Origin: a virus
Virus record (IMG/VR): IMGVR_UViG_3300045988_052780
DNA length: 64,000 bases
Direction: 5' to 3' (one strand)
A model generated the notes under the pieces. It searched no databases. It was not told the DNA's origin and saw nothing but the letters and a program-made list of their open reading frames with translations. Position 1 is the stretch's first letter, and the number at the start of each line of letters is the position of its first letter. Shown piece after piece: positions 500 to 62,519 of the stretch. A program made the position numbers and the translations under genes.

Positions 500-1246
500 T
501 TACACCTCACCCTCGGTAGGTGAGTGATTTATTAAGTATTCGTATTTCTTGTTCTCACTACTAACTATCTTGCCATAGATTTCTATTTCGTGTAATAGTC
601 TATTCTTGATAGCCTCTTCTTCCGTGTCATACCATTCGATTAAGGATTCTCCATCCTTCTTTATATAGCATCTCCAGCATTTACCATCTCGTCTATTAGA
701 GTGATAACTAACACCTACTACTTTACCGTAGTGTCTGTTAACTACATTTATTGCTTGAGATACTACTCTAAGATTCTCCATTCTATTGTCTAGTCTAATT
801 CCATTAATATGGTCCACTACAGTCTTAGCATCGTAACCCTCTGTTTCAGTCAGAATCTTATGAATTAGCCGCGTCTTACCATCAGTTTTAGTTACTGCGT
901 AACCTTCACTATTAATATAAATCTTAAACTGTTGTAAGAACTCTTTCTTATCTAAATCGAATATTACTTCACCAGTGATTTCACCATGTACTCCTCTACA
1001 TACACAGACATTATCTCTCCACTCATTAGCATCCTTCTGGGTGAATTGAGATATCTCTCCATGTCTATACATTTGTAAATAGTGCTTTCTACAATAATAC
1101 TGTCCATCTCCCTTAAACTTACTTACTCTACCAGTGCCATTACCGACACTAGCTCCACATATACAGCAAATTCTTTCGTTAGTCTCCATATTTATAAAGT
1201 TGTTACTTGTTTCACTTAATGAGACAAAGATACAACTTATTCCCAA
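500..1246 (-). CDS. HNH homing endonuclease (HNH_3 motif DHINGIRLDNRMENLR plus AP2-like DNA-binding domain) inserted inside nrdD
   Basis: ORF track 248 aa with the DHINGxxxDNRxxNLR HNH motif and a C-terminal AP2-like YHSNRRDGKCWRCYIKKDGE...EEEAIKNR segment. It sits between the two nrdD halves. Confidence 0.8.
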   Translation of the reverse strand: MGISCIFVSLSETSNNFINMETNERICCICGASVGNGTGRVSKFKGDGQYYCRKHYLQMYRHGEISQFTQKDANEWRDNVCVCRGVHGEITGEVIFDLDKKEFLQQFKIYINSEGYAVTKTDGKTRLIHKILTETEGYDAKTVVDHINGIRLDNRMENLRVVSQAINVVNRHYGKVVGVSYHSNRRDGKCWRCYIKKDGESLIEWYDTEEEAIKNRLLHEIEIYGKIVSSENKKYEYLINHSPTEGEV

Positions 1247-1390
1247 TAGAAACTAACTTTAATGGACATACTTAATAAACGGGAGAATACTTCAATTCTC
1301 CTCTATATGTTACCATATAGTTCCGACTATCGCATACCTTAATACATTATATTCACACATAACGTATTAAAGTCCTCTATATTTAGTCTG

Positions 1391-2518
1391 TCAGGCTGCA
1401 CACTTAACGTTGCTTGCCCCCTGTTGTCCTAATATTAGGAGTTCCAAGTCAATTAATAGAGGTTTTAATTCCCCATCGAAATTCCAAGGGAATGTAAGAA
1501 TACACTTAGTGCGTTCATTATTAAACCAAGTCATAAACTTCTTCTGTAACCAGTTCAAAGAATCCCATATGGGCTTAGTTCCATCTGGGAATACAAACTC
1601 ACCAAATAAACCTTCAAAGTAATTCTTATCAAAATAACTGATATTCCAGAATACTGATTGGAAGTTACGAGCAGCTGCTGGTTGATTGATTGAATATACA
1701 ATCTGTTGGAACTTCTGTTCAATAGTCTTATCAATATTTCTATGTTTATCAACCATCTCTTCTGGACGTTTCCAATAATCATCACCCCATTCTTTACGAG
1801 CGAAGTAATCGAAATACATTAGGAACTCACCAGTAGCTACTGCTCCAGCGAATTGTGAGCTGATAGCAAATACCAGATTAACAAACATACCGCAGAAGGA
1901 GTCCAGATTCTTAGGCTTGGCAGACAAACCTCCAATTGGCTGTAGCCCTTCAAGTAGGAACGGATACATAGTGATAGCCACGCAGTAGGGCATAATTGAT
2001 GTTTCATCATGCTTGTAAAGTTCATGAGATTCCAGTTGTCTAATATACTCCTTAGCTAAATCTTCACCATATAACTGCCTAATTTTATCTGTAAGGATTG
2101 CTCTATTAACTTTAATTACATCACCCTTAAACAACTCTCCATTTAAAGTTACTATATTCTTCTCAGTAACATTGGCATTAGCATCATATTTACTACCTGT
2201 AGCAGCATTAGATGCTTTGGCATAATCTTTAATAAACTGCTTCTTCCCAGCTAATGCTCTGAGTTCAGCTTGTTTATGTCGATACAAAATGAATGCTTTA
2301 GCGACATCATAGTAATCACAAGCCATCAAAGCCTTTTCAATTTGATCTTGAAGCTCTTCTACTGATACTATGTTGTTAATATACAATTCATCTTTAATAT
2401 CATCCAAAATATCGGAATCAATTGGTTCGTTAACAGCATTGAACGCCTTAGTAATAGCCGCGTCAATCTTATTAATATCGAAAGGTTCTACTCTCTTATT
2501 TCTTTTAATTACTAACAT
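1391..2518 (-). CDS. nrdD: anaerobic ribonucleoside-triphosphate reductase NrdD, N-terminal part (ATP-cone plus start of catalytic domain)
   Basis: N-terminal ATP-cone (MLVIKRNKRVEPFDINKIDAAITKAF...) followed by class III RNR-like sequence. The ORF ends 144 nt before the HNH start. Confidence 0.7.
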   Translation of the reverse strand: MLVIKRNKRVEPFDINKIDAAITKAFNAVNEPIDSDILDDIKDELYINNIVSVEELQDQIEKALMACDYYDVAKAFILYRHKQAELRALAGKKQFIKDYAKASNAATGSKYDANANVTEKNIVTLNGELFKGDVIKVNRAILTDKIRQLYGEDLAKEYIRQLESHELYKHDETSIMPYCVAITMYPFLLEGLQPIGGLSAKPKNLDSFCGMFVNLVFAISSQFAGAVATGEFLMYFDYFARKEWGDDYWKRPEEMVDKHRNIDKTIEQKFQQIVYSINQPAAARNFQSVFWNISYFDKNYFEGLFGEFVFPDGTKPIWDSLNWLQKKFMTWFNNERTKCILTFPWNFDGELKPLLIDLELLILGQQGASNVKCAA

Positions 2519-35469: not shown

Positions 35470-36516
35470 CTATGACTCCCTTACATACTCTTCATAAATA
35501 TACAGTTCAAAGTTAGGTCTTATAAACATATCTTTGTCTGTAGCTTCGTCCCAATGAGTAACTATAACCTTCTTGCGAACGTTATGGCTAAACATAGAAT
35601 CAATATTGAGACTATGCCTAAACAAAACTGGATCAAACTCTATAGCCCGGAAAGATTTCTGAAAGTCGTTAAATTGGTTGTTGGGGTCTACAACAGGTCT
35701 AACTGGCTTATCAGAAGGAAACGGACCGTTACCATGACGCGTTATGTATGGTCTAGTAACGTAATTAACCGTAACGGTGTCATTACATCCAATTTGTTTT
35801 AGTATTCGATGAGCATTCTGTGATGTTGTATTAGATGGAGTGCAATGGGGCATTATTCCGAATCTTTGGTCTAATAATATACCTTGAGAACCTTCAAAGA
35901 TAAGATTGTCGTAATCTTCCCATATAGCTTCTAAGGTACTTACTTGGACAGTGTTGAAATATGCATTCACAGTTCTGCACCAATTATCCAAGTCAATTGA
36001 TGGATATACACTATTCATGTGATAATAGTTGTCTGCTATTGCATTAACTTTCTCCCTAAGAATATGTATATTCAAGCAATCTATAACCATAAGATTATAC
36101 CCCGACTTCACTCGGTCTAAACACGTTTTAAAACCAGTCCCTACAGTACCATGACGTAGATTTACTACGTCACTTACTTGGGAATAGACGTCGAATGGTA
36201 CTATGACTTGACATAATGGATTATAAATAATTTTAGGAGTAATACCTAATTTCTTTAAATCCATTGCTTCAAGTGTAGAGGTTACTGGGTCTACAGTACA
36301 GTATTCAGACCAATATGTAGGCACTCCTAGCAAGGTTCCACTTCCAAAGTTACTAAATGTGTGCATAAGGTCTCCGTATTTAACAGTATGGCCAACTTGA
36401 TGTCCACCACTAAACCTTATTACAAGTGAGTTCTCTGGATTCTTAGCACATATATTATGTACCGTCTGTCCCTTACCTTCATCGCCCATAAATGAGCCTA
36501 ACACTATACTAATCAT
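35470..36516 (-). CDS. purA: adenylosuccinate synthetase (PurA)-like, shortened. The ORF-track start at 36624 is probably too far upstream; the likely start is the internal Met before GSFMGDEGKG.
   Basis: GDEGKGQ P-loop and RFSGGHQVGHTV motif match PurA (GDEGKGK / GGHNAGHTV). Confidence 0.7.
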   Translation of the reverse strand: MISIVLGSFMGDEGKGQTVHNICAKNPENSLVIRFSGGHQVGHTVKYGDLMHTFSNFGSGTLLGVPTYWSEYCTVDPVTSTLEAMDLKKLGITPKIIYNPLCQVIVPFDVYSQVSDVVNLRHGTVGTGFKTCLDRVKSGYNLMVIDCLNIHILREKVNAIADNYYHMNSVYPSIDLDNWCRTVNAYFNTVQVSTLEAIWEDYDNLIFEGSQGILLDQRFGIMPHCTPSNTTSQNAHRILKQIGCNDTVTVNYVTRPYITRHGNGPFPSDKPVRPVVDPNNQFNDFQKSFRAIEFDPVLFRHSLNIDSMFSHNVRKKVIVTHWDEATDKDMFIRPNFELYIYEEYVRES

Positions 36517-36520
36517 GATT

Positions 36521-37441
36521 TTAATAGAAATTTTGTTTGTCTTCGGTAGTTGTACTACTAGAAGCATCACTAGGAGTTTCTGCATACACAGGCTCCTCGT
36601 AATTGTCTTTAATTGCTTTAGCAATTACTTTATCCACTTCATCAGATTTGCACATTAGTACATTCTGTCCAAGTAGATTCTTCCAAGATTCAGCCACCCT
36701 TGTGCCATAACTGGCATTAGTAATGTGAATGTGGAATACATGGTACTGCTCTTGTGCTTTCAGAATTGCTTCATTAGCACTAATAGAACCAGCACCTTTT
36801 TGATACCCTAGAATTTCAGTCAAACTGTTACCTGGGATTCCTTGTAGATTAGGTTCATCACCAATAGTAAACAAGAATCCTTTAGTGTGTCTTTTGAACC
36901 AAGAATCGGTTTCAGTGTGATATCCTGCAACTATGTGAGCTAATAAATAGCTCTCACCTGCATTACCACCACCTCCACCTTCTATTACTAAGGACTCTAA
37001 TGAATTTAGAATCTTCTCAGTATCAGATTCAAACTGTCCAACCTGAATAGGATATCTATCGAATTCGTGGTCTCCAACTGCCATAAACAACAATTGAGGA
37101 TCACGTACTCCCATTTGCATGACAGAATCCATAATCTTAGGTAAATGGTTCTTAATCATTTCATAAGGAGTATTCATCATTGAACCAGTAACATCTAGTG
37201 CAATGATTATCGGAGTAGAGTATGGATGTTCTTGAGAGTCACGACACTCACGAACTCCAACATTGACCATTTCAGCTTTAACTTGAGTATTAAAGCTACG
37301 TGCATTTACATTAAATGACGCTGCTGTATTACTAGCATTTACTGAAATGTTCTTAAAGAGCTGGTCACGCGATGCTTTAGCATATCCTCTATCATCGGAT
37401 AAAGTTCTATAAGCAATACTACTGTAAACACCACTTCCCAT
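36521..37441 (-). CDS. von Willebrand factor A (vWA) domain protein
   Basis: MIDAS motif IIIALDVTGSM (DxSxS) at the start of an alpha/beta domain. Confidence 0.65.
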   Translation of the reverse strand: MGSGVYSSIAYRTLSDDRGYAKASRDQLFKNISVNASNTAASFNVNARSFNTQVKAEMVNVGVRECRDSQEHPYSTPIIIALDVTGSMMNTPYEMIKNHLPKIMDSVMQMGVRDPQLLFMAVGDHEFDRYPIQVGQFESDTEKILNSLESLVIEGGGGGNAGESYLLAHIVAGYHTETDSWFKRHTKGFLFTIGDEPNLQGIPGNSLTEILGYQKGAGSISANEAILKAQEQYHVFHIHITNASYGTRVAESWKNLLGQNVLMCKSDEVDKVIAKAIKDNYEEPVYAETPSDASSSTTTEDKQNFY

Positions 37442-44354: not shown

Positions 44355-44379
44355 ACATTTTTAATTATTAGTTAATAAG

Positions 44380-45197
44380 TACCCCGACTGCGATTCGAAC
44401 GCAGATATGTGGCTTAGTATAAGAACTAGGAGTCGAACCTAATTCTTATTGTTATTAATTTCATTTTTATGGTAACGGTAATAGGAACGTTCTCCACACT
44501 TGTTCTTAGACTTATAAGTATCAAGCTGTGAATCACAGTTAGGACATATGCATCGTAAATTATCTCTACGATTGTTAGATGCATGTCCGTCTATATGGTC
44601 AATGATAAAGACCAGCTCTTTACCATTCCAGATAGGCTTCATACCACATATAGCACATACTCCACCTTGCTCTTTTAGAATATCTTTCTTGAAGGCCTTA
44701 GGAGAGTAGTTAGCTCTCATTATACTTTCATCACCGTCCAAAAGCTTCTTGTAAGCAAGCATATGAGCATGTTCAAATTGACATTTAGGACCACAGTACT
44801 TGCCATAACTTCCGTTATAACTAATAAGTTCTGCACCACAGTTTAAACAGTATTTGTACTTCCTATTGAATGTTTCTTTAGGATTAATTTTACGTTTAAT
44901 TGGTAACTCTATGCCAAGTCTACGCGCTACATTCTTAATATTAGCACCTGAACAACCATATCTTCTTCCTATTTCCTCATAACTGAGCTTATCTATCAAA
45001 ATTAAATGCTCAAGTTGAGCTTTCTCGTTAATCCATTTACTTGTCATATTCGTCTAAATTAGAAATTCGTACCTCAAAGATACGAATCTTTTACGAATTA
45101 AACAAGTAAATGGATGTTTTGTTGAAATTAATAACAGTGAGTTACGGACTCACCAGCCGTATGAAGGCCACTGTTCTATCCCTTGAACTATCGAGGC
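44380..45197 (-). tRNA. tRNA split in the anticodon loop by a ~746-nt intervening sequence carrying an HNH endonuclease gene. The anticodon is TCT (Arg) or TCA (UGA-reading) depending on the exact junction (exon 1 45162..45197, exon 2 44380..44415).
   Basis: 5' half GCCTCGA TA GTTC AAGGGATA GAAC A GTGGC CTTCA... and 3' half ...AA GCCAC ATAT CTGCG TTCGAAT CGCAG TCGGGGT A. The anticodon stem GTGGC/GCCAC is perfect and the acceptor pairs 7/7 with two G:U. Confidence 0.55.
44439..45047 (-). CDS. HNH homing endonuclease with N-terminal HTH, paralog of 30867..31448, inside a tRNA intervening sequence
   Basis: CAICGM...IDHIDGH...NLRCICPNCD HNH motifs. The N-terminal 60 aa are about 60% identical to the other HNH. 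Confidence 0.8.
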   Translation of the reverse strand: MTSKWINEKAQLEHLILIDKLSYEEIGRRYGCSGANIKNVARRLGIELPIKRKINPKETFNRKYKYCLNCGAELISYNGSYGKYCGPKCQFEHAHMLAYKKLLDGDESIMRANYSPKAFKKDILKEQGGVCAICGMKPIWNGKELVFIIDHIDGHASNNRRDNLRCICPNCDSQLDTYKSKNKCGERSYYRYHKNEINNNKN

Positions 45198-49272: not shown

Positions 49273-49289
49273 GTTGCGGAGATGGGAGT
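49273..49289. repeat. 17-bp direct repeat ttgcggagatgggagtt. It duplicates the 3' end of tRNA-Met (50000..50016) and flanks the GIY-YIG gene on its far side.
   Basis: 16/17 identity with 50000..50016. It is followed by the hairpin GATGGGA(N14)TCCCATC. Confidence 0.7.
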
Positions 49290-49936
49290 TATTGTGCATA
49301 TTCCCATCTATATCCGTATGCTGTCTTAGTCTTGTGCTTAGCTGCATTAGAGATATGGCTTCTAACACCTCCGTTATATGTCTTAGCATAACCGTTATCA
49401 ACACACCAATGTGCTGCATCAGCTACGCTATCAAACACTTGCACAAGCATATCTTCGTTGTACTGTTCTATCTTTACTGGAGGTTTACAGGAGCCACAAC
49501 GTGACTTGCTATTATTGTGAGACCTCTTAATGTCCTTCACTACTTTAGACACTGTGTCTGGATGACATCCTACTATTTTAGCAGTATCTTTCATCGAATG
49601 TCCAGCAGCGTAAAGCTCACGAATTTCATCATAGTTCCAAATAATAGAACCATCTCCACCGGTAGTGGCATTATAACCATTACCATAGGTTTTAAATTCA
49701 TTTATCCAGTAAGTTTCTCTTCCGCTAGATTCCTTTGACGAGCACTCTTCTAGCATTTCTATGCTAAATGAATCAATTCCATATTTATTCATGGCTCTAT
49801 ACAAAGGTCTATCTTTGCATCTCTCCTTCTTATAATCTCTACAGTGTTCTTTCCATCTCTTACTAACGGACGAAGTAGTTTTACCTATATACTTCTTTCC
49901 ATTTACATGGTTAGTTATGCAGTAAATATAAGACAT
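49289..49936 (-). CDS. GIY-YIG homing endonuclease (I-TevI/Seg-like) with C-terminal DNA-binding region
   Basis: N-terminal YIYCITNHVNGKKYIGKT...RWKEH is the GIY-YIG signature. The C-terminal half has NUMOD/HTH-like segments. Confidence 0.8.
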   Translation of the reverse strand: MSYIYCITNHVNGKKYIGKTTSSVSKRWKEHCRDYKKERCKDRPLYRAMNKYGIDSFSIEMLEECSSKESSGRETYWINEFKTYGNGYNATTGGDGSIIWNYDEIRELYAAGHSMKDTAKIVGCHPDTVSKVVKDIKRSHNNSKSRCGSCKPPVKIEQYNEDMLVQVFDSVADAAHWCVDNGYAKTYNGGVRSHISNAAKHKTKTAYGYRWEYAQ

Positions 49937-49999
49937 TAAGCTTTAGTCGAATTAGCGTTACCCGAATCTCACCACGTGGAGGTTTCGACTATGAGATTC

Positions 50000-50078
50000 T
50001 TGCGGAGATGGGAGTCGAACCCAATATAACTAGCTTATGAGACTAGTATGATTTATATATCCGTTTCATTCCTCCGCA
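50000..50078 (-). tRNA. tRNA-Met/Ile2(CAT) with enlarged D-loop
   Basis: Acceptor TGCGGAG/CTCCGCA, anticodon stem CTAGT/GCTAG with loop CTCATAA, T-arm TTGGG TTCGACT CCCAT. The D region is 6 nt longer than standard. Confidence 0.5.
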
Positions 50079-50081
50079 AAG

Positions 50082-50153
50082 TGCTCCATACAGGATTCAA
50101 ACCTGTGACACGTAGGTTTAGGGTCTACTGTTCTATCGCTGAACTAATGGAGC
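50082..50153 (-). tRNA. tRNA with CUA anticodon (candidate amber-suppressor / TAG-decoding tRNA); loop is atypical (C33)
   Basis: Perfect acceptor GCTCCAT/ATGGAGC, D-arm GTTC AGCGATA GAAC, anticodon stem GTAG(A)/(C)CTAC with loop CCCTAAA, T-arm ACAGG TTTGAAT CCTGT. Confidence 0.5.
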
Positions 50154-50274
50154 GTGTGGCAATGCTTTTAAGGTGCACCGCCAATTCATCCTACTACTTA
50201 CTTCTCCACCCCGTAAGATTAACTATTCGGTGGTAAGACCAGTCACAACATGCTAACTGCTGTGGAGCCTTGTT

Positions 50275-50580
50275 TCAGTAATTTCCTACTAACTTAAGTT
50301 TCTTGAACATACGACCGTCATCTTGTAATGCGATTGCTGTTAATTGGTTATTAAGGTCTGGTTCACGGAACATAGAGTAATCCTTATTAGTAAGGTCTAA
50401 TCTAACTCTCCATTTATCCAAGTCAGCATATAAGTAGATTAAGTAGTTATTGTTCCAATTCTGATTAGGATGTTCCAATAACCACTGTGCTACTGCATGA
50501 CCACCTTGTACACAACCATAAACTACATCAAGCTTCTGGTCTATCAGCACATACAGTCTCTTCATCAGAATATGCATCAA
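50275..50580 (-). CDS. peptidyl-tRNA hydrolase, PTH2 family-like
   Basis: YVLIDQKLDVVYGCVQGGHAVAQW aligns by eye to the PTH2 block VVRTDLKMGKGKIAAQCSHAA. Size (101 aa) and the C-terminal KLKLVG fit the family. Confidence 0.45.
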   Translation of the reverse strand: MMHILMKRLYVLIDQKLDVVYGCVQGGHAVAQWLLEHPNQNWNNNYLIYLYADLDKWRVRLDLTNKDYSMFREPDLNNQLTAIALQDDGRMFKKLKLVGNY

Positions 50581-52130: not shown

Positions 52131-52200
52131 TCAGCTAGGTGGGATTCGAACCCACACCACTTACATAATTTGTAAGTCTTCTAACTTAAATTACTAGCCT
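52131..52200 (-). ncRNA. tRNA-like element (canonical T-arm GTGGG TTCGAAT CCCAC plus 6-bp acceptor) with a non-cloverleaf body; candidate Y-RNA-like tRNA mimic or degenerate tRNA
   Basis: Minus strand is AGGCTAG TAATTTAAGTTAGAAGACTTACAAATTATGTAAGTGGTGT GGG-TTCGAAT-CCCAC CTAGCTG A. The body forms a 7-bp hairpin ACTTACA/TGTAAGT with a 5-nt loop instead of D and anticodon arms. It lies about 105 nt downstream of the vWA/Ro-like gene on the same strand. Confidence 0.4.
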
Positions 52201-52308: not shown

Positions 52309-54027
52309 CTAGCCTTGTTGAGTGGACACAGTGCGCTTATTATAAATTGGCTTCTCAGCCTTTGCAGGCTTACTCTGCACGCTTGCATTCTTTCTCGGTG
52401 TGTCCTTCTCTAACACCATCATATTCAAGAGTTCTTGATTCATCATGTAATCGAACAACTCTTTAGGCGTACTAGGATTCTGGAATCTCTTCTCTCCGGT
52501 TATAAATCCAGCAGTGGACTGACTTAATCCGTTAACAAAGAAACAGTTAGAAACATTGCGAATCAATTCAACTTTAGGCTTAGTCTGTTTAGAGGCTAAA
52601 TGCCAAATAATTAATTTAAACTGTTTAACAAACTCTTTGCTAAATCCAGCTTTTAAGAGTTTAGATTTAAATTCAATGAATTGTTCACTGGTGTTTCTTA
52701 AATGTCCCAATGCTCCGCTAATTACCAAACAGCCATTTGGAAATTCACCTTCCCGAATTCCTCCAGATTTAATAGATATAAGCATATCTGCAATCATAGA
52801 CAGAGTTGGACTAGTTACTAAGGCTTCCTCAGTATCTGAAATCCACTTACTAGTAGGAGTTGTACCTTCCCACTTACGTAAATCACATCTATTGTTGGCA
52901 AATACACCATACATGCCAGAGAACGCTACAGGCATTAATTCGGAATGATACATAGCATAAGCCTTACCAACACTATAAGCAGAAGTTTCAGTAGCTTCTA
53001 TCTCAGAATAAGCAGAATTACTAATGTCTCTAATTACTAATAGTGGTGATACTTTCTTTAGCTTAGCATTCTTCACGAATGTATTAAAACTAACATCTAT
53101 AGAAGAACCCATGAATTCTGGTACGAACTCTGCAATTTTATCAAGTCCAAATGGCTTAAATAAATTATGCACAAATCCGTCATTACAGGGCTTTCTACGA
53201 GTCTTCAGCCATTTCTGATACTTCTCTGCAAGACCTTGTTGTTTGAGGAATTTAGAGCCTACTAGCAGTGCTAGAGCCTTTCCTGGAACTGTATCAAAGT
53301 CAATGTCGAGTAATTTCTTATGGCTTATTAATTGCTGCCATTTCATAACTGTACCGCTGTTCTTCATCTTTCTATACTTACGATAAGATGAATAGTCTCC
53401 TTCCTCTTTCGGTTTACCATAAAGGCCTTCAGCTAGATATTTAGCAACTATGTTACGGGCTTTCGCCTCGTCTGTCTTACATATAGTATTAGCTCGAACT
53501 CTAGGAAGATACTTCTTTACTAAGTCACATGTTTGCCCTTCTACTAAACCAGCATAAATAGTCTTTCTAAAGAAATCCCAATCTAGTCTATGCTTGTATC
53601 CATGTAATTGAGCATCCATTACTAACATATTAATAAAGTCCTTCCAGCATCCTGCTGCCGCAAAGTAAGGCATATTGGCATGGAATGTAGATTTATGATA
53701 TGTTGCCAACCACATCATTCTTAATAAACCTTCATTCTTTAGACCACCTCCTCGCTGTGTGTCTAAGTAAATAACTCCATTAGGAGTAACTACTCTACAT
53801 TTACGTGTAATAAGTCTTACACAGGCAGTAAATTTGACACACAGCTTTGGATTGGCCTTCCACAGTTCATACATATCTTGACTAACGTCTTCATAAGAAC
53901 GTGGTTCAAGATAGTGCGCAAGGTTTACGAATTGGTCCACAAATACTTTAGTAGGATTTGTATACCTTCGTCCCCCACCTTGAGAGGGCTTAGAGCAAGC
54001 CTTTTTAGGCCTTTCATTCATTTCCAT
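52309..54027 (-). CDS. large vWA-domain protein. Tentatively Ro60/TROVE-like (Rsr), but not verified and could be another vWA-containing RNA or DNA processing protein.
   Basis: 572 aa with a MIDAS DxSxS motif (VIRDISNSAYS) about two-thirds along, as in Ro60 domain order (TROVE then vWA). A tRNA-like RNA lies immediately downstream. Confidence 0.35.
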   Translation of the reverse strand: MEMNERPKKACSKPSQGGGRRYTNPTKVFVDQFVNLAHYLEPRSYEDVSQDMYELWKANPKLCVKFTACVRLITRKCRVVTPNGVIYLDTQRGGGLKNEGLLRMMWLATYHKSTFHANMPYFAAAGCWKDFINMLVMDAQLHGYKHRLDWDFFRKTIYAGLVEGQTCDLVKKYLPRVRANTICKTDEAKARNIVAKYLAEGLYGKPKEEGDYSSYRKYRKMKNSGTVMKWQQLISHKKLLDIDFDTVPGKALALLVGSKFLKQQGLAEKYQKWLKTRRKPCNDGFVHNLFKPFGLDKIAEFVPEFMGSSIDVSFNTFVKNAKLKKVSPLLVIRDISNSAYSEIEATETSAYSVGKAYAMYHSELMPVAFSGMYGVFANNRCDLRKWEGTTPTSKWISDTEEALVTSPTLSMIADMLISIKSGGIREGEFPNGCLVISGALGHLRNTSEQFIEFKSKLLKAGFSKEFVKQFKLIIWHLASKQTKPKVELIRNVSNCFFVNGLSQSTAGFITGEKRFQNPSTPKELFDYMMNQELLNMMVLEKDTPRKNASVQSKPAKAEKPIYNKRTVSTQQG

Positions 54028-54388
54028 CTTGTAAAATTAAATTGGCAGGTTAATCTGAGAGTTCTTTATTCTAATTGATAAAATGGGACACATAGACATC
54101 GAGCCAGCTTAATACAACTCGCTACTTACACACTACATGCCCCATATCAAATGAGGAAAGAGGTTCACTTGATGACCTATCTACGTGCTGATTATAACGT
54201 AGACCGTGCAGATTCTCTCTTACACAATACTATGATGGACTCAAACCATCTCCACCCCTAGGTGAACTTTCCGTTATTCGAATAGTACAGGTTTCAACTC
54301 TTTATAACGCCTTTAAGTCAAAGTATACTCCGGAATATACTCTTAGTTCATCAGACCAAGTTTGCGCTTAGAATTATCTAAGATTAAG

Positions 54389-55911: not shown

Positions 55912-55950
55912 TGGACCATCGCGGACTCGAACCGCGGTCTTCACAACTCT
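55912..55950 (-). ncRNA. tRNA 3'-half-like element (T-arm CGCGG TTCGAGT CCGCG plus acceptor 3' strand ATGGTCC A) with no matching 5' half nearby
   Basis: Canonical T-loop and 7-nt acceptor strand. I found no complementary GGACCAT plus D-arm within 700 nt upstream. Confidence 0.35.
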
Positions 55951-56876
55951 AAATAATAAGATTACGTGTGTCTCTATTTTATTACATCAGCTGTTGAGTT
56001 CAGCATGTAGACAGTTTTATTAGTCTTATCCTGGAACCAGGTAATTAGGCTGTAATAGCCAAACCAGTACGCCAAAAGCTAATTTACAAACTACCAAACT
56101 TAAAGGTTCAGAAGCTGACGCTTCCAAACCTGGACTGACCGAAGTCGTCCCTCCACCACTCCATTTACGTTGGAGAACGTCTATTTGTAGCCCATAGATA
56201 GGCAGTGGAGATTTCAGCTCTACTAGCCTTTGGCTTTCAAGTTAATGCATCTAAGCTTCACTGTAACCTGTAGGTACTATGATTCTTCCCCGAAGGTCTC
56301 GTTATAACACTTAGATACAAACCTCTTCTGTTTCTAGGTCTCCCCATTAACCCGACTTAATCAATATGATATCGATAAGCCACAGCTTACGCTGCCATTC
56401 TTACTTCAGTGTTGTCACTTGAAATTTGTGTATCATTTTATAAGAGTTGGTACGAACTCTACACGTCTTACTACCCAGTTATCATGAATCAATTCCATGT
56501 ATGGCCCATAGTAGCATGATTATACTCTCATGCCAGGAGTGGGAAACAACCCAAAGCTTTCAGTATCCTCCTGTGCTACTGGCGTACCCATTTCAGACTT
56601 AAAAGCTTATCAATGAATGAAAAAATGAATAGCACGCAGAATGTTAACGGAAGAACTCTTTAAGCAACTCACATTGCTCATTCATGAACTTCCGTCTAAC
56701 ACTAGCACTATTAAAAGAAATAAAATGATAATCGAATCGAGATGTTATTGGAATTATATTGTTACCACATCTAGTGACGCAGTATTTATAAGTTCCATCC
56801 TCCCAGTCAGGTTTCCAACCTTCGTTGTACATATCAAGAGCAGTCATTACTGCATTGAATATTTCGGCATGTGACA

Positions 56877-62439: not shown

Positions 62440-62519
62440 TTATTAATCAGACTCCTGCATATAGCAGAAGTTTCGTCCAGTCTCATCAGTGATTATTTTA
62501 TAGACTCCTGGTTGTCTTA

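Follow-up and report, generated by a model that had tools for sequence, protein, structure and literature searches.

A CUA-anticodon tRNA with an unusual anticodon arm in a standard-code, crAss-like gut phage

The CUA tRNA gene, its orthologues and its cassette

The subject of this analysis is a tRNA gene with a CUA anticodon, which pairs with the amber codon UAG, in a 64,000-nucleotide stretch of the viral record IMGVR_UViG_3300045988_052780 from IMG/VR (hereafter the window). The gene is 72 nt long and lies within an array of 24-25 co-oriented tRNA genes, recognised with ARAGORN and Rfam, at 22.6-52.2 kb. ARAGORN reports it at 50081..50153 as 'tRNA-Pyl (cta)', and the Rfam tRNA model RF00005 gives it 56.8 bits, the gathering score being 29, and an E-value of 1.4e-9 for the whole window. 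Written out by structural element, the RNA reads GCUCCAU UA GUUC AGCGAUA GAAC A GUAGA CCCUAAA CCUAC GUGUC ACAGG UUUGAAU CCUGU AUGGAGC A. All pairs are Watson-Crick in the acceptor stem (7 bp), the D stem (4 bp) and the T stem (5 bp), the discriminator is A73 and the terminal CCA is not encoded.

The anticodon arm is less regular. Its stem comprises four Watson-Crick pairs and an A31·C39 opposition that cmscan flags as non-standard, and its loop, C32 C33 C34 U35 A36 A37 A38, presents the anticodon CUA with C at position 33. In the minimum-energy fold obtained with RNAfold (-20.6 kcal/mol, z = -2.9), the arm has a 4-bp stem and a 9-nt loop, ACCCUAAAC. The gene thus scores as an elongator cloverleaf with RF00005 but lacks both U33 and a Watson-Crick 31-39 pair. 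The CUA is followed by a purine at position 37, within the A36-A37-A38 context typical of tRNAs that read codons starting with U. In elongator tRNAs U33 is near-invariant and the 31-39 pair is normally Watson-Crick; known exceptions at position 33 are C33 in some eukaryotic initiators and G33 in the Candida tRNA-Ser(CAG) (PMC5041475, PMC11122139). An earlier note on this DNA had described a 72-nt tRNA with perfect acceptor, D and T arms and a CTA anticodon, a description that the ARAGORN call and the Rfam score of 56.8 bits bear out. The alternative that it gave, a 9-nt loop around a 4-bp stem, is indeed the minimum-energy fold, and its caution over C33 and 31:39 was correct, both departures being confirmed and proving to be the most informative detail of the gene.

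An identity as tRNA-Pyl was rejected, since its variable loop of 5 nt, ordinary D loop of 7 nt and anticodon stem of 4+1 bp do not make the compact Pyl shape; the label is simply the ARAGORN naming convention for a CUA anticodon. A Pfam scan of 59 open reading frames (ORFs) of the window found no pyl genes or Pyl-related family, and further ORFs that were scanned have none either. Quadruplet decoding and a shifted-anticodon reading of the 9-nt loop were also rejected: in other registers the only U of the loop leaves too few nucleotides on its 3' side, and the relatives described below have a canonical U33-CUA loop. Compared with 174 tRNAs of the family, the CUA tRNA shows similarity at background level (44-52 of 72 positions), the best matches being Arg-UCU, Asn, Val and Ile at 49-52/72, and no amino-acid identity could be assigned from it.

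Orthologues were sought through homologues of the neighbouring 572-aa protein, which lead to the tRNA arrays of more distant relatives. An orthologous CUA tRNA occupies the same array position in the family loci L222 and L224, where the neighbouring protein is 64% and 45% identical, respectively; it is missing from the scanned tRNA arrays of three other relatives at 40-47% protein identity. When window, L222 and L224 are aligned, all 20 stem pairs are paired in every sequence (60 of 60 stem cells) and seven have changed on both sides, which none of 500 shuffles achieved; this covariation is measured on three distinct orthologue sequences only. The run C34-U35-A36-A37-A38-C39 is invariant in all three. 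Directly before it, L222 and L224 have U32, U33 and a C31·C39 opposition, and the window lineage has A31, C32 and C33, making three adjacent differences. A mismatch at 31·39 is therefore kept across the orthologues, as A31·C39 in the window lineage and as C31·C39 in the two relatives. Judged by these sequences, the whole orthologue group is unusual at 31·39 and the window lineage doubly unusual.

Within the lineage of the window, identical copies of the gene, all with C33, were found in six contigs (L010, L013, L014, L015, L018 and L027). In L014 the tRNA is identical at 72 of 72 positions though its upstream flank matches at only 615 of 747 (82%). When IMG/VR was searched with the 17-mer GTAGACCCTAAACCTAC, the matches outside this phage lineage were all due to chance, lay in non-tRNA sequence and were discarded. 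The gene is part of a variable cassette of about 1 kb (Table 1). Two loci that are otherwise 96-98% identical to the window in BLAST comparisons over 49.0-51.9 kb, L016 and L017, lack this cassette, with the same junction in two samples, and tRNA scans of both found no cta tRNA. Stem covariation, identical copies and cassette-less strains together indicate a gene that is constrained, mobile within a cassette and dispensable; the gene is real and maintained.

The other members of the cassette follow the CUA tRNA closely. The short spacer to the next gene, with the same junction in L222, implies that the CUA tRNA and the tRNA-like gene with a CAU anticodon would be made as a tandem transcript. 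Of the arms of the latter, only the D arm is aberrant, the acceptor, the anticodon arm and the T arm being good, and in L013 and L018 the gene is split by an insertion of ~750 nt after CTCATA in the anticodon loop. The candidate ribozyme, of the hepatitis delta virus (HDV)-like type, begins at 49999, 1 nt past the discriminator (50001) of the CAU gene; the match to its Rfam model is full length but sub-threshold, reaching 38 bits where the gathering score is 44 (E = 1.5e-5 when 501 nt are searched, 0.0019 for the whole window). The homing endonuclease gene is absent from L014.

A second, unrelated CUA tRNA, with loop GUCUAGA and G37, is found in several near-identical contigs, namely L007 (9283..9357), L010, L013 (2328..2402), L014 and L015, at a position corresponding to about 61.4 kb of the window. 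The window itself has no match to it, even with up to 3 mismatches allowed.

Table 1. Positions of the CUA tRNA gene, its cassette neighbours and the split tRNA gene in the window
Feature	Coordinates	Strand	Basis and remarks
CUA-anticodon tRNA gene	50082..50153	-	ARAGORN, Rfam RF00005, fold, orthologues; C33, A31·C39, A37, A38, A73
4-nt spacer CUUU, CUA tRNA to next tRNA-like gene	50078..50081	-	Read from sequence; same junction in L222
Atypical tRNA-like gene, loop CUCAUAA, anticodon CAU	50001..50077	-	Rfam tRNA 20.8 bits, sub-threshold; hand parsing
HDV-like (theta-type) self-cleaving ribozyme candidate	49936..49999	-	Rfam RF02682
Free-standing GIY-YIG (SegE-like) homing endonuclease gene	49289..49936	-	Pfam GIY-YIG 1.4e-12, SegE_GIY-YIG
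Variable cassette (CUA tRNA, CAU tRNA-like gene, ribozyme candidate, endonuclease)	49377..50432	.	BLAST, tRNA scans
Split tRNA-Arg(UCU), two halves	44375..45197	-	Exons match intact Arg-tct tRNA of relatives (L014 17109..17181)

The phage and its use of TAG

The window has 36.3% G+C and a dense standard-code layout with nearly all genes on the minus strand, among them genes for DnaB, helicases, a split NrdD, a PurZ-like adenylosuccinate synthetase and nucleases. Exact protein matches place it on human-gut contigs of 182.5-186.5 kb; complete genomes with the CUA tRNA include IMGVR_UViG_3300045988_023864 (182,517 bp) and ERZ28641872 scaffold_4 (186,546 bp). Structural genes of the crAss type are present, recognised by the Pfam families Crass_capsid (3e-14; major capsid protein of 473 aa), crAss_MUZ (1.1e-22; muzzle protein of 1593 aa) and CrAss_Ring_1. 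The structural block also holds tail fibres and giant ORFs of 1526, 1615, 1892+, 2258 and 2927 aa, as is usual for the transcription and cargo block of crAss phages; comparison of the giant late ORFs with PHROG and Pfam gave no match, save for the muzzle protein, which was recognised by precomputed Pfam hits. LAGLIDADG, GIY-YIG and HNH ORFs and intron-split tRNAs are further components of this phage.

Zeta crAss-like phages are described as 145-192 kb long, rich in introns and tRNAs and sometimes equipped with suppressor tRNAs without reassignment (PMC7886860). In their 'clade 8', with genomes of 164-188 kb, 35.4-36.9% GC, 20-29 tRNAs and Bacteroides hosts, 11 of 12 genomes carry tRNA-Sup-CTA and yet 'there is no suppression' (PMC12386605). 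The window phage fits a Zeta-type crAss-like gut phage of ~183 kb that matches this clade. The Zeta placement derives from its size, its load of introns and homing endonucleases and its tRNA count, that in 'clade 8' from G+C, length and tRNA number; the phage is placed by these properties, not by a terminase tree or a direct sequence match. Searches of GenBank phages, by megablast with window 40-60 kb and by blastn with the tRNA, returned short fragments only. A tblastn search with a 670-aa phrog_1735 protein was set aside as uninformative on kinship, as it matched 555 unrelated large myoviruses.

Two side observations concern the genome itself. At 500..2518 (minus strand) of the window and in L001-L006, the anaerobic ribonucleotide reductase NrdD is found in 3-4 pieces, cut by HNH and GIY-YIG ORFs, and the number of insertions varies by contig. 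Two longer loci, L227 (362,505 bp) and L228 (381,860 bp), carry the structural genes of this phage at about twice its genome length and are probably concatemeric or duplicated assemblies.

To follow TAG beyond the window, the genome was walked using the IMG/VR contig 3300045988_023864, which has an identical tRNA, together with near-identical contigs. This covered ~90% of the ~183 kb; the ~15 kb (~9%) outside the walk probably include the large terminase gene. The late genes lie on the opposite strand beyond a convergence point at ~97 kb of the contig, and past the muzzle gene the late block was read from its near-identical counterparts (99% muzzle identity) instead of the IMG/VR contig with the tRNA. 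On the late strand, standard-code ORFs of 90 codons or more cover 91-99.5% of the late block in six of seven loci, and 98-99.5% in five; the seventh, L123, spans the convergence point and has a coverage of 0.61. Such ORFs contain ~21,000 late codons, without in-frame TAG by construction. No interruption in the standard code occurs in the genes for the major capsid protein, Ring_1, muzzle and tail fibres, in 737-aa and 364-aa genes of the head region or in any of the giant ORFs.

Other measures agree. Among window ORFs of at least 100 codons, 45 end in TAA, 17 in TGA and eight in TAG, and reading TAG as sense lengthens ORFs no more than reading TGA as sense. Across 214 family loci, extending to 34% protein identity and with a mean standard-code coverage of 0.90, ORF pairs joined by TAG number 13 and are rarer than the controls joined by TGA (91) or TAA (136). 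The flanks contain no TAG-joined ORFs; inside the window such pairs occur solely on the non-coding strand or within a 662-aa gene, there in an alternative frame. TAG terminates 18 of 105 early and middle genes (17%; TAA 67, TGA 20). By comparison, TAG is not the terminator of any of the 35 late genes with 100 aa or more (TAA 29, TGA 6; Fisher p = 0.007), as counted in the loci L123, L130, L158, L184, L219, L227 and L232. The next in-frame stop follows at a median of 6 codons after TAG, 9.5 after TAA and 5 after TGA; backup stops after TAG were accordingly dropped as a line of evidence, since the distance is the same as after TAA or TGA and speaks neither way.

Over ~90% of the genome, then, TAG is an ordinary stop, and there is no TAG reassignment in early, middle or late genes. 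The earlier note had suggested that the late genes may use recoded stops. This is not sustained: the late block is intact in the standard code, with TAG as a normal terminator, its structural genes show no in-frame TAG enrichment, which the note itself had named as evidence to the contrary, and the comparison of ORF lengths that it proposed brings no gain for TAG beyond that for TGA.

It is accordingly extremely improbable that this is a phage of the code 15 type, with TAG as a sense codon for Gln in its late genes and the CUA tRNA as the mark of this usage. The tRNA is present, some other Zeta crAss-like branches are amber-recoded (PMC7886860, PMC12386605) and ~9% of the genome falls outside the examined part, but uninterrupted structural and giant late ORFs, late loci that are almost fully covered in the standard code, the lack of any length gain peculiar to TAG and the 17% of early and middle genes that end in this codon all point the other way. 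So do the absence of the CUA tRNA from some near-identical strains and the lack of suppression that has been published for the matching clade (PMC12386605). The amber-recoded code 15 gut phages, found in beta and zeta branches of the crAss-like phages, in Lak phages and in other clades (PMC7886860, PMC9523058, bioRxiv 10.1101/2021.08.26.457843), do share with the window phage a CUA tRNA in an early/middle array and a standard-code host. Their late, structural and lysis genes, however, contain in-frame TAG and fragment in the standard code, whereas the late block here is intact. For annotation this means that code 15 should not be deduced from the mere presence of a CUA tRNA in a gut phage, and that the window genome should be called with the standard code.

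Read-through might also be confined to particular sites, either programmed, in one or a few of the phage genes that end in TAG, or as an incipient reassignment at a few sites. Yutin et al. proposed an 'incipient code change' for suppressor tRNAs without visible reassignment (PMC7886860), and the early/middle block offers 27 TAG-terminated genes on which it could act. Nevertheless, we regard this as very unlikely: no TAG-terminated gene is followed by a long in-frame extension (maximum 26 codons, median 6), the TAG-joined pairs of the window are confined to the non-coding strand or the alternative frame mentioned above, and long-diverged lineages are argued to keep the tRNA without accumulating TAGs (PMC12386605).

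Possible roles of the CUA tRNA

The occurrence of a CUA tRNA without amber suppression is already known from Zeta crAss-like phages (PMC7886860, PMC12386605). With 'clade 8' of these papers the window phage has in common its genome of ~182-186 kb and 36% GC, a single array of 24-25 tRNAs, capsid, ring and muzzle genes of the crAss type, abundant introns and homing endonucleases, and the presence of a CUA tRNA where amber suppression is lacking (here over ~90% of the genome). The same papers do not describe the anticodon arm. New details are the mismatch retained at 31·39, the C32/C33 peculiar to this lineage, the tandem of a tRNA(CAU)-like gene and an HDV-like ribozyme candidate, and the cassette polymorphism. 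These leave the known picture unchanged. They add detail to a question left open in the crAss papers of 2021 and 2025, namely why standard-code Zeta phages retain suppressor tRNAs, and they offer natural variants for experiment.

Our preferred explanation, held with modest confidence, is that the gene encodes a genuine, maintained phage tRNA of the amber-suppressor type which, in a standard-code Zeta-type crAss-like phage, causes partial read-through of UAG. The description as a candidate amber suppressor, put forward in the earlier note, is credible as to type, given that CUA, A37 and A38 are invariant and that all 20 stem pairs are kept, seven of them with compensatory change. The tRNA would be transcribed with the array and then trimmed, with the downstream ribozyme candidate setting the 3' end of the tandem transcript. 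CCA would be added by a phage CCA-adding enzyme; of six contigs examined immediately outside the start of the window, one, L002, has a gene of this family (PolyA_pol). Charging would fall to a host synthetase, Gln being the usual outcome for CUA anticodons. The charged tRNA would then compete with release factor 1 at UAG, and the result would be partial read-through, not reassignment. The cost to the phage should be low, as a median of only 6 codons separates its TAGs from the next stop and the sampled late genes end in TAA or TGA. The benefit proposed in the literature for this clade is a disturbance of host translation and defence (PMC7886860, PMC12386605), and the phage would profit, as proposed there, from a weakened host or weakened host defences. 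With U33 lost in addition to the conserved 31·39 mismatch, the tRNA of the window lineage is most likely a weak, attenuated decoder.

Several observations weigh against this explanation. C33 may abolish decoding outright rather than attenuate it. The cassette that carries the CUA tRNA is dispensable, as its deletion in L016 and L017 demonstrates. Recent movement together with the adjacent homing endonuclease, not selection, could explain why the tRNA is fully identical between diverged flanks. Finally, the depletion of TAG at the ends of late genes is weak evidence and, as no sense TAGs occur there, amounts to avoidance and no more. Late genes of relatives sometimes end in TAG, in one case in the CUA-bearing contig 044054, and highly expressed genes favour TAA anyway. 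Late TAG avoidance was therefore rejected as the signature of an active suppressor, being significant in the window lineage and not absolute in its relatives.

Another possibility is that the gene is a relic, in which the changes at positions 31-33, including U33 to C, have destroyed decoding and which is heading for loss. U33 is after all near-universal in elongator tRNAs (PMC5041475, PMC11122139), the relatives have U32 and U33 where the window lineage has C32 and C33, deletion variants exist in L016 and L017, and a phage without sense TAG codons might have no need of a CUA tRNA. Against this, no position outside 31-33 has decayed, the anticodon, A37 and A38 are untouched, and the sequence is identical in six independent contigs. 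These include L014 with its 82% flank, for which the neutral chance of identity is about 0.82^72, roughly 1e-6. A relic is a serious but rather unlikely alternative.

The same anticodon arm could instead be an adaptation and not decay. On this reading, which we consider decidedly unlikely, the tRNA would be a suppressor tuned to be weak, conditional or nuclease-resistant, which sabotages host termination, including that of defence genes, while the late genes of the phage avoid TAG. The parallel with the Candida tRNA-Ser(CAG), in which a base other than U at position 33 would tune an ambiguous decoder, is an analogy only. Both are natural tRNAs of elongator type that are tied to a non-standard reading and have lost U33, but the Candida tRNA is eukaryotic, has G33 instead of C33 and belongs to a completed reassignment of a sense codon (cited in PMC5041475). 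Were the arm adaptive, the U33 and C33 lineages and the deletion strains would form a natural allelic series bearing on why non-recoded phages keep suppressor tRNAs.

A role outside decoding might also be envisaged, with the RNA serving as a tRNA-shaped decoy or nuclease-resistant substitute against host anticodon nucleases, or as a processing or regulatory element of a tRNA-ribozyme operon. Phage tRNAs whose altered anticodon loops evade tRNA-cleaving host defences are documented (PMC10264068), the anticodon loops of other tRNA-like genes in the array are abnormal as well (those at 52131..52200 and 50001..50077) and the 31·39 mismatch is conserved. A decoy would, however, have no reason to hold CUA-A37-A38 for so long, no host tRNA has a CUA anticodon that could be mimicked or replaced, and the acceptor and T arms look like those of a chargeable tRNA, so that we judge such a role distinctly improbable and return to a suppressor-type tRNA as the favoured interpretation.

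The arrangement of the cassette recalls the theta ribozymes of Kienbeck et al. 2024 (PMC10879173), minimal HDV-like candidates that lie directly 3' of phage tRNAs in gut-phage arrays. As in that work, the unit seen here includes a suppressor tRNA. The window candidate differs in that it abuts the tRNA(CAU)-like gene rather than the CUA tRNA and in its sub-threshold score. Theta ribozymes are linked to a code switch in PMC10879173, whereas the window phage is not recoded.

Other elements of the window

A possible TCA tRNA had been suggested at 44380..45197, in support of recoded stops. This is wrong, and there is no opal suppressor: the locus is a tRNA-Arg(UCU) gene split by an intron (Table 1), missed by both ARAGORN and Rfam. 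Its acceptor, D and T arms are identical to those of the intact tRNA-Arg(UCU) of L014. An insertion of ~750 nt, with an HNH endonuclease ORF at 44439..45047, follows the start of the anticodon loop, CUUC, and the spliced loop would be CUUCUAA, with the anticodon UCU.

At the far end of the array, 52131..52200 (minus strand) scores 40.6 bits with the Rfam tRNA model, was missed by ARAGORN and has the loop AAAUUAU, without U33. At the same array position, L222, L224 and L225 have tRNA-like genes with abnormal loops, which ARAGORN labels 'ct', 'taaa' and 'ttag'. The adjacent gene, at 52309..54027 (minus strand), encodes the 572-aa protein that led to the orthologues; it matches DUF2828/DUF7788 and a PHROG annotated as 'RNA-binding protein', and one of its homologues faintly resembles Ro60-vWA (E = 0.11). 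A search of PDB sequences with the 572-aa protein gave no hits. The tRNA-like gene and the protein may form a protein-RNA pair resembling Ro60 and Y RNA.

Three further RNA matches lie on the minus strand towards the end of the window. Rfam gives strong matches to RAGATH-34 RNA at 54284..54381 (86.9 bits) and to a RAGATH-1 hammerhead ribozyme at 62445..62518 (82.6 bits). Between them, at 55919..56490, the model of transfer-messenger RNA (tmRNA) matches over its full length, though below threshold (24.6 bits against 47, E = 5e-6). Inspection by eye shows the 5' strand of an acceptor, GGGCCAT, and, more than 500 nt away, CGCGG-TTCGAGT-CCGCG-ATGGTCC-A, which makes up a T arm with the 3' strand of the acceptor; this could be another intron-split tRNA or a tmRNA-like gene.

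The Pfam census of the 59 window ORFs contains no release factor or aminoacyl-tRNA synthetase; it does include a ribosomal protein L7/L12 C-terminal domain (3.9e-6), a bactofilin, a ferritin-like protein, RNase H and PDDEXK_5 nucleases. The adenylosuccinate-synthetase homologue at 35470..36624 (minus strand) has as its best PHROG match phrog_1211 (2.8e-43), of the PurZ type involved in the synthesis of 2-aminoadenine (Z-base) DNA, and also matches Pfam Adenylsucc_synt (3.3e-34). A PurZ-like gene also follows the tRNA array in L225, and its homology may point to a modified genome.

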